This document shows positions 36,954 to 42,098 of a DNA stretch of 64,000 bases, in pieces. Numbering within the stretch: position 1 is the first letter of the stretch; the number at the start of each line of letters is the position of its first letter. The DNA lies in assembly GCA_028875345.1 (NCBI GenBank), contig JAPPEG010000314.1:6505-70504 (forward strand), given 5' to 3'. Origin of the DNA: Gemmatimonadota bacterium (GTDB taxonomy: Bacteria > Latescibacterota > UBA2968 > UBA8231). A model generated the notes under the pieces. That model was given only the letters and a program-made list of their open reading frames with translations, did not search any database and had not been told where the DNA came from. The translations under genes were made by a program, and so were the position numbers.

Positions 36954-38702
36954 ATGAGGAAAAAAATACGTAACCAATTAATATACAAGCCCTTGGAAAC
37001 GCTGTCAACATGGGTTATACTGGGTTTGTTGATCCCGTTGGGCACCGTTGCGGCCGGAGCGGATTCGTCGGTTTACGTGCCTTTGGATCACTGGGTTTAT
37101 CGCTTTGTCGAGCGGCTTGAGGCCCAAGGGCGGGCTAACGATGTCGCAGATGGCATTAAGCCATACAGCCGCAATAAAATAATAGAATTACTTAATGTGG
37201 TTGATAAAAAATATCGTCCCGAACTGTCGCCGCTTGAACTGGGTGAACTGGACTTGTTGCGCGGCGAGTTTGTCCAAGAGCGAGCCATGTTTCAATACCA
37301 CGCCCGTGGAGGGGCCGTTTTCGCCGACTTTCTCGCCCGCCAGCAAACCGATCGCTTTAGCGGCCGGGGACGGTCGGAAGCCGAAGTAGTGTATCGCCAC
37401 CGAGGCGGCGGCATCGTCCGCGGACATCTAGGTAGCAGAGTGGGCTTCCGCATGGCTTTTGAACAGGTGCGAGAGCAAGGATCCCGCGATTACGAGTATC
37501 GCCACGACCTGTACGAGCGGCGAATTGACCTGCCGCAGCTAAAGGGCGGGGCAGCCGATTTTCACGAGGGCACGGCGTACGTCAAGTTCGCGGTGGGGTC
37601 GGTGGACGTGCAATTGGGCAAAGACGAGGCTTTGTGGGGGCCGGCCCCGGAACAAAATTTGGGGCTGGGCAACAACGCGCCGTCGTTTAACATGATCCGC
37701 TTGCAGTCGCAGCTTGGGGCCTTTAAGCTGGTCAGCATCTCCGCCGAGCTCCGCCCATGTCCCAACCGACCCGACTCGCCCCTTTGCGTGGGGACGGCTG
37801 ATTCAGCGGCCACGTATGCAGTCAACGGCGTGACTAACGTGCGCCTGTTGGAGCGCCAAAAGTACTTGGCGGCCCACCGCTTGGAGGTGGCGCTGGCTCC
37901 TTGGCTCGACTTGGGTTTTCAGGAGGTGGTAGTGTACGGCGACCGAGGGTTGGAGCCTAGCTATGTCAATCCGCTGATGTTCTACTGGGCTGCCCAAAGC
38001 CACTTAGGCGACAAAGACAACCTCCTGATGGGCGTGGACTTGGACATCCATCCGGGGCACGGACGGCGCTATTATCTGGCGTACGTAGTTGATGACCTGA
38101 AGAAGGCCCGCATCTTTTCCGACGATTTTGCCAACAAGTTTTCCCTGCAGGCTGGGATGCTATGGGTTGATCCACTGGGGTTGGCCGATTCCGAGTTCCG
38201 GGCCGAATACGTGCGCATCGAACCTTGGCTTTACTCGCATCGGTTTCCCATTAACACCTTTCGCCACTTCGACTCACCGCTGGGACACAGCCTCGCGCCC
38301 AATAGCGACCAATGGCAATTGAGCCTGACCAAGCGGGCAACCCGAAACCTAGAGTTTGCGGTACATGTCACGCGCAGCCGCCACGGCGAGAACGAGTTAG
38401 AGACAGACGGCACCATTCGCAATGTCGGCGGCGATATGCACTATGGTTGGCGACCGGGGGACGAGCGCGAGACCAAGCAATTCCTCGATGGGCATCGCAT
38501 GCAGCGGACCGCGCTGGCCGCTGGTCTGCACTGGCGGATCTTGCCCGATCTCCAGCTAGAGGCCCAATACGCACAGGAGTGGGGCCAAGGTGTGCCGCTA
38601 CCCCCGGCTTGGGGTCTGGCCGTGCCGCTGGCGTGGCGCTCTGGCTACGGGGATGGCCGCCAGCAGCACCTGCGCTTTGACCTGCGCTTTAATTACTTTT
38701 GA
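36954..38702 (+). CDS. Wzi-like (capsule assembly) outer-membrane beta-barrel protein
   Basis: Signal-like [18 protein letters not shown]-terminal helical motif [33 protein letters not shown] as in the Caps_assemb_Wzi family. It has alternating beta-strand-like sequence and a C-terminal [10 protein letters not shown] (aromatic terminal residue). Confidence 0.55.
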
Positions 38703-38711
38703 GGCCGCCTT

Positions 38712-39834: not shown

Positions 39835-40902
39835 TTGGCCTACCTAATCACGCCTAAAGCACTGCCGCGCTACGTTCGGCGCTACGCCCGCGCATTTTCC
39901 TGGAAGCGGCTGGGCAATTTTCTCGCTGTTTTGGCGTCCATGGGGCTGTCTTGGATGACCCGCCGACCTATCGTGTGGGGCCGTCCTTTTATGCTCATGG
40001 TCGAGCCGACCAACTTTTGCAACCTCAAGTGTCCCTTGTGTCCTTCAGGCAATGGCGAGATGCGTCGCCCCCGAGGCACTATGGGTTTGGAGGACTTCAA
40101 AAAGCTGGTTGACGAACTCGGCAGTGAGGTCTTTATGATGATGCTGTGGAACCAAGGCGAGCCATATATCAACAAGTGCTTCAACCAGATGGTGCGCTAC
40201 GCCAGCGACCGCGGCATCTTCACCTTCACCAGCACCAATGGCCACTTTGTTCGCAACCCAGAGCAGGCGCAGGACATTGTCGAGTCCGGGCTGGATGAGA
40301 TGATTGTCTCGCTGGACGGGGTTGACCAAGCCACGTACGAAAAATATCGAGTCGGCGGTCAGATTGAGCGCGTCTTTTCCGGGGTCCGCCTGCTGGTCGC
40401 AGCCAAAGAGGCGCTGGGGTCGCAGACGCCGCTGATCAACTTGCAATTCATCGTTATGAAACACAACGAGCGCGATCTGACCACGGCCGAAGCGCTGGCC
40501 AAGGACCTGCGCGTTGACAAGTTTTTGGTCAAGACCGCCCAGATTTACACGGATGCGGACGCCGAAGAGTTCTTACCTGAGAATGAACAGTACAGCCGCT
40601 ACGAGCGTGCGGAGGACGAACTGGTGGTCAAGGGGCAGCCTACGCGGGGTTGCAAGGTGCTGTGGTACAGCTCGATGGTCAATTGGAACGGAGCGGTCGC
40701 GCCCTGCTGTTTCGACAAGGACGTCGACTTTGGCATGGGGCAGGCCTTCAATGGCCGTTCTTTTGACGAGATCTGGCGCAGCCGGGCCTATATGGATTTT
40801 CGCCGTCAGGTTCTCGCCGACCGCAATAGCTTCGATATGTGCCGCAACTGTTCCGAAGGCTATCGCGGCATGTTCTCGCTGATCAAGGAAATTAAGGGCT
40901 AA
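39835..40902 (+). CDS. Radical SAM / SPASM-domain enzyme
   Basis: AAGGAG at 39824-39829 lies 5 nt before the TTG at 39835. CxxxCxxC cluster EPTNFCNLKCPLC. C-terminal SPASM-type cysteines CKVLW..NGAVAPCCFDKD..CRNC. Confidence 0.8.
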   Translation: MAYLITPKALPRYVRRYARAFSWKRLGNFLAVLASMGLSWMTRRPIVWGRPFMLMVEPTNFCNLKCPLCPSGNGEMRRPRGTMGLEDFKKLVDELGSEVFMMMLWNQGEPYINKCFNQMVRYASDRGIFTFTSTNGHFVRNPEQAQDIVESGLDEMIVSLDGVDQATYEKYRVGGQIERVFSGVRLLVAAKEALGSQTPLINLQFIVMKHNERDLTTAEALAKDLRVDKFLVKTAQIYTDADAEEFLPENEQYSRYERAEDELVVKGQPTRGCKVLWYSSMVNWNGAVAPCCFDKDVDFGMGQAFNGRSFDEIWRSRAYMDFRRQVLADRNSFDMCRNCSEGYRGMFSLIKEIKG

Positions 40903-42098
40903 TGCCCGGGCTGTCCGCGCCCGAATACCTCTTGGCGTTTTGTGCGCTGACCTACTTGCTCGGGGCTTGTTGGTTCGTCATCGGAATGCGCTGCCATCGC
41001 GGCCATGCCAATGCCGAGCGCGTCCAGTTAGTCTCGGTCGTCGTCGCCGCCCGCGACGAAGCCGCGCACATCGCATCCTGTCTGCGCGCCCTGCTGGCGC
41101 AGGATTATCCCCAAGATAGCTACGAAATCATCATTGTTGACGACGGCTCCACCGATGGCACTGGCCACATCGTGCGCGAGTTCAACGAGGAAACTGTGTT
41201 CGTGCAATTGCTGCGCACCGAAGGGTCGGGTTCCAAGAAGGCCGCGCTGAGCTTAGGGATCGCCGAAGCGCGGGGGGAGGTGATTCTCACCACGGACGCC
41301 GATTGCCAAGTCGCTCCGGGATGGATCCGCGGCATGTTGTCGCACTTTGCCGACGGGGTAGGCATGGTCATCGGCTTTTCGCAAATCGGTTCGCCGTCCG
41401 AGATCAAGGGTTGGCGTCAGGGATACGAGGCCGTTGACTTCACTTGCTTAATGGCTTGCATATGGGGCAGCGCCGGTTGGGGTCATCCCATGGCGGCTTC
41501 CGGGCAGAATTTGGCCTTTTTGCGGGAGGCGTTTTTCGACGTTGGCGGTTATGAAAAGATCATGCACCGGGCTTCTGGAGACGATGTGCTGCTCATGCAG
41601 GCCATGCGCCGCTCGGGTCGGTGGTCTATTGTCTTTGCCGATCAGCCAGCGACCTTTGTGCGGCATCCAGTGGCAGGATCTTGGGGTGGGTTATTCGGCC
41701 AGCGCAGCCGCTGGGCTTCCAATGCCCCGGTCCTCGCCCGCCTAGATCCGCTTTTTTTCGGCTATATGCTGCTCACATACGCTTTGAACTGGGCGACGCT
41801 CATGGCTCCCTTGCTGTGTTTGGCCAGCTTGCTGGATCCCCTGTGGACTTTAGGCGCGGTGGGGGCAAAAGTGTGGGGCGAGTGGAATGTATTTAATGGC
41901 GGAATATTGCTATCGGGCCGGCGCGAATTGCGCCGCTATTTTCCTCTTTGGGCCTTGTTGCAACCCCTGCACGTAGTTTTAGTCGGCAGCGTTGGCTGCT
42001 TGGGGATTTTCCGCTGGAAGGGCCGCGTCCATTTATGGGGTCGGCGCGTGCGCAGGGCTGGTACCAACGTCGAGCTATCCCAACCGTCCCGACGCTGA
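40902..42098 (+). CDS. Membrane-embedded family-2 glycosyltransferase (canonical QxxRW)
   Basis: The start overlaps the rSAM stop (TAATG). VSVVVAARDEAAHI..IIIVDDGSTDGT, TDADCQV, SGDD, QRSRW. It has N- and C-terminal TM segments. Confidence 0.8.
   Translation: MPGLSAPEYLLAFCALTYLLGACWFVIGMRCHRGHANAERVQLVSVVVAARDEAAHIASCLRALLAQDYPQDSYEIIIVDDGSTDGTGHIVREFNEETVFVQLLRTEGSGSKKAALSLGIAEARGEVILTTDADCQVAPGWIRGMLSHFADGVGMVIGFSQIGSPSEIKGWRQGYEAVDFTCLMACIWGSAGWGHPMAASGQNLAFLREAFFDVGGYEKIMHRASGDDVLLMQAMRRSGRWSIVFADQPATFVRHPVAGSWGGLFGQRSRWASNAPVLARLDPLFFGYMLLTYALNWATLMAPLLCLASLLDPLWTLGAVGAKVWGEWNVFNGGILLSGRRELRRYFPLWALLQPLHVVLVGSVGCLGIFRWKGRVHLWGRRVRRAGTNVELSQPSRR

Follow-up and report, generated by a model that had tools for sequence, protein, structure and literature searches.

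A conserved Latescibacterota operon encoding a Wzi-like protein, two membrane glycosyltransferases, and a Twitch-like radical SAM enzyme as a candidate envelope glycoconjugate pathway

A 64,000-nucleotide stretch of the genome of an uncultured bacterium assigned to the Latescibacterota (assembly GCA_028875345.1, contig JAPPEG010000314.1, positions 6,505 to 70,504 of the forward strand), called the window here, carries an operon of four plus-strand genes at positions 36954-42098. These encode, in order, a Wzi-like outer-membrane protein, a family-2 glycosyltransferase (GT2-A), a radical S-adenosylmethionine enzyme (rSAM), and a second family-2 glycosyltransferase (GT2-B). With moderate confidence, we read this operon as a pathway for an envelope glycolipid or a lipid-linked (short) glycan, one sugar of which receives radical tailoring. 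The gene order, the family assignments, the conservation of motifs, and the co-localization of the same families across phyla were all observed directly. The four genes, whose products all have Pfam assignments above gathering thresholds, and the enolase gene beside them are as follows (aa, amino acids; nt, nucleotides).

36954-38702, plus strand: Wzi-like gene; 582 aa, outer-membrane beta-barrel, PF14052
38712-39821, plus strand: GT2-A; 369 aa, integral-membrane family-2 glycosyltransferase, PF00535 and PF13506
39835-40902, plus strand: rSAM gene; 355 aa, TTG start, PF04055 and PF13186
40902-42098, plus strand: GT2-B; 398 aa, integral-membrane GT2, PF00535 and PF13506
35643-36932, minus strand: enolase (translation); divergent from the Wzi-like gene, 21 nt from its start

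The initial annotation of this DNA, made from the sequence alone, had described four closely packed genes for a Wzi-like protein, two GT2 enzymes, and an rSAM, and both the packing and the identities were borne out by the open reading frames (ORFs) and their Pfam families; the successive junctions are a 9-nt gap, a 13-nt gap, and a 1-nt overlap (TAATG). The rSAM gene most plausibly starts at the TTG at 39835, which lies 5 nt 3' of an AAAGGAG ribosome-binding site. Every small ORF of the operon interval fell inside one of the four genes, leaving no space for a precursor-peptide gene, and the small-ORF listing of this interval contained no free-standing precursor-peptide ORF, as had been noted initially.

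The rSAM protein was approximately 98% identical to its counterpart on a Candidatus Latescibacterota chromosome (L003), and the order of divergent enolase, Wzi-like gene, GT2, rSAM, and GT2 was intact in approximately 60 species-level genomes, most of them labeled Latescibacterota and some labeled 'Gemmatimonadetes' or Handelsmanbacteria. When a gene was missing from this Latescibacterota-type arrangement, it was always at a contig end. The rSAM was the most conserved of the four gene products, with 61 to 98% identity. A second Latescibacterota lineage, in which the rSAM was approximately 52% identical to that of the window, kept the GT2-rSAM-GT2 triad in 16 of 16 loci, without the Wzi-like gene or the enolase. 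The initial annotation had staked its proposal on the four genes staying together in other genomes, and they do so in the approximately 60 genomes above, with families that recur in other phyla as well. Two records with other labels, 'Gemmatimonas phototrophica' (L045) and 'Planctomycetota' (L031), carry the full Latescibacterota-type arrangement; these labels are probably errors of taxonomy or binning of metagenome-assembled genomes (MAGs). In the second lineage (L067-L082 and similar loci), the triad was followed by a gene for a DmpA-type S58 peptidase in 14 of 16 loci and by one for a sodium:solute symporter in 12 of 16.

The rSAM family extends well beyond this phylum. A full HMMER scan recovered 2,618 cluster representatives at E <1e-30, approximately 335 aa in length, and an aligned sample of 21 family members kept the cysteine pattern described below. 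In the Ignavibacteriota, the rSAM gene was followed by a gene for a PF03706 protein (MprF/HpnL-type flippase-like) and then by one for a GT21-like GT2 in 70 of 70 loci, counting those with room downstream, and MAGs assigned to Ignavibacterium album carry this module of rSAM, flippase-like protein, and GT2. In the Cloacimonadota, the rSAM gene was convergent with a Wzi-like-GT2-PF03706 operon in 10 of approximately 28 loci, the adjoining Wzi-like protein being a distant homologue of that of the window (BLASTP E 1e-23). Another such distant homologue (E 2e-33) is encoded in locus L165, where the order is epimerase, Wzi-like gene, and rSAM; in L166-L168 and L171 the order is GT2, rSAM, PF03706, and GT2, and a Calditrichota locus (L105) has a GT2 and a PF03706 gene between two copies of the rSAM. 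Three representatives of proteins in which a GT2 is fused to the rSAM were also found (P0349, P0386, and P0358); their GT2 domain is of the soluble type, and P0358 has an extra C-terminal cupin domain. Relatives of the cassette are present in the FCB phyla Latescibacterota, Ignavibacteriota, Cloacimonadota, and Calditrichota and possibly in the Bacteroidota. Taken together, this recurrent co-localization, the GT2 fusions, the flippase-like partner, the membrane GT2s, and the sugar-modifying relatives of the rSAM make a glycoconjugate pathway that includes radical tailoring of a sugar the best explanation of the cassette. A Cloacimonadota contig (L172) was seen to carry two rSAM copies in tandem.

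The rSAM protein belongs to the radical SAM superfamily, as judged by its CX3CX2C motif, its match to PF04055 (E 2.3e-14), and the beta/alpha core of its AlphaFold2 (AF2) model. The CNLKCPLC cluster named by the initial annotation (C62-N-L-K-C66-P-L-C69) was confirmed and was invariant in 21 + 22 sequences. Conversely, the full SPASM cysteine array that had been claimed with it was not found. The C-terminal part contains only C273, C291, C292, C336, and C339, which are conserved in close homologues and in the much wider family, and compared to the seven-cysteine SPASM array (CX9-15GX4C ... CX2CX5CX3C ... C) there is no CX2CX5CX3C block. A Twitch domain is a truncated SPASM domain, and this is why the protein matches the Pfam SPASM model PF13186 despite its incomplete array. 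A search of the PDB with a profile of the rSAM family gave BtrN as the best match (E 1.5e-10), followed by BlsE and then GDGT-MAS (E 3.6e-8), an enzyme that acts on lipids. Residues C273, C291, C336, and C339 align with the auxiliary-cluster cysteines C169, C187, C232, and C235 of BtrN with identical spacing (18/45/3). These alignments suggest a Twitch-like enzyme of the BtrN-like subclass with one auxiliary cluster, in a region where the confidence of the model, its predicted local distance difference test (pLDDT) score, is below 50. An enzyme of this type, whose nearest solved relatives work on sugars (BtrN, BlsE) or lipids (GDGT-MAS), needs no precursor peptide to account for it, and the apparent paradox in the initial annotation falls away; Twitch-type enzymes typically act on small molecules. 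The initial idea of radical chemistry on a sugar or glycolipid is favored by the synteny, by the BtrN and BlsE relatives, by the GT2 fusions, and by the flippase-like gene of other phyla, but the SPASM premise from which it had been argued was wrong.

The AF2 model of the whole rSAM has a pLDDT of 68. Its top Foldseek match was BlsE, with a TM-score of 0.45, and the ranking of BlsE, HydE, GDGT-MAS, MoaA, and SkfB lends weak support, pointing to little beyond 'radical SAM'. Two N-terminal helices have too little hydrophobicity to span a membrane, and no transmembrane segment was found. No NCBIfam cut-off was reached by this protein: the best match was TIGR04317, a predicted 'tungsten cofactor oxidoreductase maturase' (120 bits against a cut-off of 380), and the score for TIGR04466, the BlsE family, was 39 bits against 400. 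HpnJ, a TIGR03471-type rSAM with a B12-binding-like N-terminal domain, was absent from the best 25 NCBIfam matches, as was the anaerobic sulfatase-maturating family.

The match to the Pfam SPASM model raises the question of whether the rSAM is instead a SPASM-like protein or peptide maturase, the substrate of which would be a neighboring protein or a peptide encoded elsewhere. Its best NCBIfam match is itself a predicted metalloenzyme maturase, and weaker ones include PqqE, MftC, and sactipeptide maturases, but these scores are 3 to 10 times below the cut-offs; for PqqE, MftC, and the sactisynthases they were 54 to 60 bits against cut-offs of 265 to 650, so that membership in these maturases of ribosomally synthesized and post-translationally modified peptides (RiPPs) is not indicated. 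The protein has a single set of auxiliary-cluster cysteines, Pfam found only Radical_SAM and SPASM in it and no RRE/PqqD-like domain, and the operon contains no free-standing peptide ORF. Across phyla the rSAM gene stays linked with GT2 and flippase-like genes, and fusions to GT2 exist, both of which argue against a maturase. We regard this alternative as very unlikely. Two specific candidates of this kind, a sulfatase maturase and a RiPP maturase, were ruled out by the incomplete cysteine array, the absence of a peptide gene, and the low scores. Clustering with such enzymes had been named initially as the finding that would overturn the proposal, and the rSAM reached the cut-off of no sulfatase- or RiPP-maturase family; the initial statement that no sulfatase gene is nearby also held among the window ORFs scanned.

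The third PDB profile match, GDGT-MAS, which also appears in the Foldseek list, bears on a different possibility, that the rSAM modifies the lipid moiety, through C-C coupling, cyclization, or methyl-independent cross-linking as in Tes, Mss, and Grs, while the GT2s merely add head groups. Lipid-modifying rSAM enzymes are numerous (PMC13459092). The GDGT-MAS match was, however, limited to the common rSAM core (residues 54 to 172), and Tes, Mss, and Gms are approximately 500 aa in length, compared to 355 aa and one Twitch cluster here. Tes and Gms are SPASM-domain enzymes with two auxiliary clusters (PMC13459092). In addition, the GT2-rSAM fusions use soluble-type GT2 domains, which argues for sugar chemistry. 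Modification of the lipid is, in our estimate, distinctly improbable, and we continue with tailoring of a sugar.

GT2-A and GT2-B are paralogues, with 31% identity over their full length (E 5e-44). The glycosyltransferase motifs pointed out in the initial annotation were recovered, DD, TDAD, and GDD being kept in both proteins across 62 to 65 orthologues. In GT2-B the sequence R-x-R-W-A-S-N was invariant among orthologues, whereas the (Q/R)xxRW motif of GT2-A is degenerate (QQKLRH), with the Arg alone conserved in 62 orthologues. In the high-confidence AF2 model of GT2-B (pLDDT 88), a GT-A domain and interface helices lie between a single N-terminal transmembrane helix and three C-terminal ones; GT2-A has the same architecture. 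Foldseek matched the GT2-B model to PcManGT (6yv7; TM-scores 0.61/0.69), BcsA (0.65), and hyaluronan synthases (0.56 to 0.62), and PcManGT was also the best PDB sequence match of GT2-A. With all motifs invariant and the fold matched, GT2-B is a membrane cellulose-synthase-like GT2, and GT2-A is the same with the RW motif reduced to its Arg. A look-up of the exact GT2-B sequence returned no record.

Neither GT2 reached an NCBIfam cut-off, and every match was far below. MftF was among the best matches of both (68 to 108 bits, cut-off 280); PgaC, NodC, and EpsD gave 38 to 93 bits against cut-offs of 370 to 550, which does not indicate membership; HpnI (TIGR03472), although aligned over the full length, gave 45 to 56 bits against 310, and HpnB (TIGR03469) gave 60 to 69 bits against 379. 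No hopanoid genes were found among the neighboring ORFs scanned, with no shc or hpnH nearby. HpnI, HpnB, and HpnJ membership in a hopanoid pathway was ruled out by these low scores and by the missing hopanoid context. The comparison with HpnI and HpnJ drawn in the initial annotation is useful as an analogy, but the sequences do not carry it further, with HpnI far below its cut-off and HpnJ outside the best 25 NCBIfam matches.

The main rival to a lipid-linked product is a synthase-dependent exopolysaccharide, to which we give a real but clearly minor chance. GT2-A and GT2-B, possibly as a heterodimer, would polymerize a glycan and translocate it through their own transmembrane channel in the manner of BcsA, hyaluronan synthases, or NodC, the rSAM would modify the polymer or its precursor, and the Wzi-like protein would be the exit or anchor. 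The invariant RxRW of GT2-B and the superposition of its model on BcsA (0.65) and hyaluronan synthases are in keeping with this, as are protein sizes like those of NodC and class I hyaluronan synthases and the appearance of PgaC, EpsD, and MftF among the weak NCBIfam matches. The Latescibacterota cluster has no flippase-like gene, and Wzi binds capsule in Escherichia coli K30. On the other hand, homologous GT2s are paired with PF03706 in Ignavibacteriota, Cloacimonadota, and Calditrichota, a pairing that speaks for a product linked to lipid. PcManGT, to which GT2-B is structurally closest, is minimal and non-polymerizing, GT2-A is without the Trp of the RW motif, and the window scans found no PilZ domain, BcsB/BcsC, PgaA/B, Wza, or Wzc.

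A lipid-linked product could also be a sugar donor. In an Arn/Gtr-like route, a GT2 would make a polyprenyl-phosphate sugar, the rSAM would modify it on the carrier, and after flipping, a periplasmic transferase encoded elsewhere would decorate lipopolysaccharide, peptidoglycan, or surface proteins. A GT2, a modifier, and a flippase mirror the logic of ArnC, ArnD, and ArnEF, and the N-terminal GT-A domains weakly match ArnC, DPMS, and GtrB-type enzymes. PF03706 also covers the transmembrane domain of archaeal AglD, according to the InterPro name quoted in 10.1101/2025.07.29.667474. At full length, however, the two GT2s are cellulose-synthase-like and unlike DPMS, GtrB, or ArnC, no GT-C transferase was present in any cluster examined, and the presence of two GT2s one after the other hints at a disaccharide or something longer. 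This donor route appears unlikely, and a glycolipid or short lipid-linked glycan of the envelope is still preferred.

The 582-aa Wzi-like protein is a member of the Wzi family: it matched PF14052 with E 5.9e-19 and 68.8 bits (cut-off 30.1) over profile positions 63 to 377 of 392. It has a signal-peptide-like hydrophobic N-terminal segment (residues 17 to 35) and the C-terminus ...RFNYF. Orthologues with 47 to 95% identity lie directly upstream of GT2-A in approximately 63 loci. NCBI gives orthologues the name 'capsule assembly Wzi family protein'. A PDB sequence search with this protein gave no match, and no NCBIfam family was reached at its cut-off. The search from the Wzi side returned close orthologues only (at least 51% identity), so it adds nothing independent on the linkage. 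Wza, Wzc, Wzx, and Wzy were found neither among the 39 window ORFs scanned nor in related loci. A standard Wzy-dependent (group 1) capsule locus was ruled out by this result, in line with the initial view that this is not a standard capsule locus. The accompanying claim that no capsule exporter is present is correct for Wza, Wzc, Wzx, and Wzy, but an ABC-2 transporter pair (listed below) lies 6 kb upstream, outside the operon.

On the pathway that we favor, GT2-A and GT2-B, seen as having a minimal cellulose-synthase-like or HpnI-like architecture, would transfer sugars from nucleotide sugars to a membrane-bound acceptor on the cytoplasmic side of the inner membrane. GT2-A has no acceptor-stacking Trp and so plausibly acts first, on lipid; GT2-B, with its RxRW intact, would then plausibly act on a sugar acceptor. 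The rSAM, with one auxiliary [4Fe-4S] cluster, would take a hydrogen atom from a sugar of the membrane-bound intermediate and convert that sugar by dehydrogenation, epimerization, decarboxylation, or ring contraction. The invariant extra cysteine, C292, which adjoins a cluster ligand, would by analogy suit an H-donor epimerase mechanism, of which NeoN and EpeE are examples. The product would pass to the cell surface, in other phyla with the help of the MprF/HpnL/AglD-type flippase-like protein from the same cluster, and the Wzi-like barrel may bind or display it there. We take the product to be most likely lipid-linked, with the Wzi-like barrel as its probable partner in the outer membrane.

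Several points weigh against this pathway. Every functional step of it is one that we infer: which acceptor is used, in what order the enzymes act, what the radical conversion is, and what the Wzi-like protein does. The similarity of the rSAM to BtrN and BlsE is remote (40 to 44 bits), with a model of low confidence in the Twitch region, and the tungsten-maturase match leaves some room for a protein or cofactor as the substrate. No PF03706 flippase-like gene was found in the window or, in Latescibacterota loci, within 8 kb of the rSAM gene. The RxRW motif and the BcsA- and hyaluronan synthase-like fold of GT2-B are also compatible with a processive polymer synthase. Finally, a Bacteroidota rSAM homologue, approximately 41% identical, is a lone gene in variable contexts, which indicates that the family is not obligatorily linked to GT2 genes.

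A broader version of the proposal, which we offer as a rather doubtful extension, is an as yet unrecognized envelope pathway of the FCB superphylum for a surface glycolipid, in which a Twitch rSAM would turn the head-group sugar into a rare or carbocyclic one, a bacterial counterpart of calditol and the hopanoid cyclitol ethers. Wzi-like barrels would be its dedicated outer-membrane receptor, and the lipid would perhaps be a surface anchor for capsule or for type IX cargo, of which the window encodes a great deal.

The remaining observations concern the surroundings of the operon and of its relatives. Isolates of Saprospira, Dyadobacter, and Flectobacillus carry the rSAM homologue as a lone gene, and that of Saprospira grandis overlaps at its start with a DinB_2 gene (L109 5442-5978). 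The rSAM gene has a divergent bacillithiol BshC neighbor in 11 Ignavibacteria loci (within L084-L099); these adjacencies of BshC and DinB_2 may be coincidence or a hint of a thiol link. A gene for an Lnb-type protein (Lnb_N + 5TMH_Lnb) lies divergently beside the lone homologue in 9 Bacteroidota loci, for example at L137 4667-5842 on the minus strand. In the window itself, the operon region had no Rfam match, and the promoter and terminator scan found no excess of terminator-like sites over shuffled expectation. A near-consensus sigma-70-like promoter on the minus strand (37008-36980; TTGACA, 17 nt, TATATT; 11 of 12 matches) sits within the 5' end of the Wzi-like ORF and is directed at the enolase gene, so that the divergent promoters overlap coding sequence. 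The enolase is a conserved synteny marker outside the functional system. On the other side, the endonuclease III gene (nth) begins a few nt after GT2-B, 42107 being where the nth match starts and not a fixed first codon; it was downstream of GT2-B in closer relatives only and is possibly co-transcribed with the operon, without a functional link. The other features of the window that were recorded are as follows.

42107-42763, plus strand: endonuclease III (nth); TIGR01083, 247 bits against a cut-off of 212
29092-30153 and 29922-30914, plus strand: ABC-2 type transporter pair (ATPase and ABC2_membrane), of a family that includes capsule and O-antigen exporters
33593-34447 and 34383-35654, plus strand: Zn-dependent phospholipase C-like gene, then a gene for a 423-aa protein without a Pfam match
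2960-5005, 8181-10577, and 10594-12963, plus strand, and 17074-19995 and 20014-21999, minus strand: large secreted-type proteins with C-terminal CHU_C or FlgD_ig
22910-24292 and 24289-25608, minus strand: two tandem MiaB/RimO-type methylthiotransferase rSAM genes (UPF0004 and Radical_SAM, one with TRAM)

For the relatives L001 and L002, the genes listed over 8 kb upstream of the rSAM gene do not include the ABC-2 pair. A pair similar to the phospholipase C-like gene and its 423-aa neighbor lies upstream of the enolase gene in L001, and a counterpart of the 423-aa protein alone is present in L002; a lipid-related link of this pair to the operon is possible. CHU_C and FlgD_ig are type IX secretion sorting signals, several of their carriers also having F5/8 type C lectin-like or GSDH domains, and these secreted-type proteins fit an FCB-group organism with cargo of the type IX secretion system. 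The two MiaB/RimO-type genes are unrelated to the rSAM of the operon.

If the proposed pathway is correct, a large uncharacterized rSAM family acts on the sugars of membrane-bound glycoconjugates in several little-studied phyla, with a new reaction or substrate class for Twitch enzymes and a new envelope lipid or glycan that could potentially be used as a lipid biomarker. Wzi-like barrels beyond Wzy-dependent capsules, and the uncharacterized MprF/HpnL-type flippase-like proteins, would also be placed in a functional context for the first time. The module is small, with three or four genes, and related forms occur in I. album MAGs and in isolates, which makes the hypothesis directly testable. 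No publication on the cassette came to light: literature searches combining rSAM, Wzi, and glycosyltransferase, or covering Latescibacteria, flippases and glycolipids, Twitch enzymes and polysaccharides, and PF03706, returned nothing relevant. A 2026 review of lipid-modifying rSAM enzymes covers Tes, Mss, Gms, Grs, Gmm, Cds, HpnH/J/P/R, Jaw5, and the ladderane enzymes and describes nothing like this cassette (PMC13459092).

Compared to known systems, each component has a recognizable relative in a different setting. The E. coli K30 and Klebsiella Wzi, a capsule-anchoring outer-membrane lectin, is the counterpart of the window protein, which scores above the PF14052 cut-off, but the window protein is approximately 100 aa longer, is without a Wza/Wzc/Wzx/Wzy context, and is partnered instead with GT2, rSAM, and flippase-like genes. 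GT2-B superposes over its full length on PcManGT, BcsA, and the hyaluronan synthases (TM-scores 0.56 to 0.69), with the D, DxD, and (Q/R)xxRW motifs in common, but sequence identity is 11 to 19% and GT2-B has no accessory domain, PilZ included. BtrN, the 2-deoxy-scyllo-inosamine dehydrogenase of butirosin biosynthesis and the Twitch archetype, shares the CX3CX2C motif and the four aligned cysteines with the window rSAM and acts on a sugar-like substrate, not a peptide; the window rSAM is only remotely similar (44 bits), is approximately 100 aa longer, with two additional helices at the N-terminus, and has a fifth cysteine that is invariant, and its gene lies beside those of membrane GT2s instead of in an aminoglycoside cluster. 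BlsE, the cytosylglucuronate decarboxylase of blasticidin S biosynthesis and the second PDB profile match, is an rSAM that acts on a sugar nucleoside, although its TM-score was just 0.45 and the rSAM model used was of moderate confidence. The mycofactocin cluster likewise combines an rSAM (MftC) with a GT2 (MftF), but the MftC score was 60 against a cut-off of 265, MftA, B, D, and E are absent, and the window rSAM is without a second auxiliary cluster.

The closest comparisons at the level of a pathway are with the hopanoid and calditol systems. The HpnI/HpnJ/HpnK/HpnL module has the same parts list, namely, a lipid-glycosylating membrane GT2, a sugar-remodeling rSAM, and a PF03706 protein, the last of which accompanies the rSAM family here in other phyla. 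HpnJ belongs to a different rSAM class, however, and no shc or hpnH lies near the operon, whereas the reported occurrences of HpnI and HpnJ are confined to genomes with SHC and HpnH as well (10.1101/2025.07.29.667474); the likeness is thus one of analogy, not membership. HpnL itself is still uncharacterized (10.1101/2025.07.29.667474). In Sulfolobus acidocaldarius, the rSAM calditol synthase, Cds, is proposed to contract the ring of a lipid-attached hexose head group, and ring contraction has been proposed for both Cds and HpnJ (PMC13459092). Cds is archaeal and acts on glycerol dialkyl glycerol tetraether (GDGT) lipids, and the two are likened here by the description in that review only. The kind of reaction is nevertheless like that proposed for the window rSAM, and ring contraction after the manner of Cds and HpnJ would be an attractive analogy for the step that this enzyme may perform.

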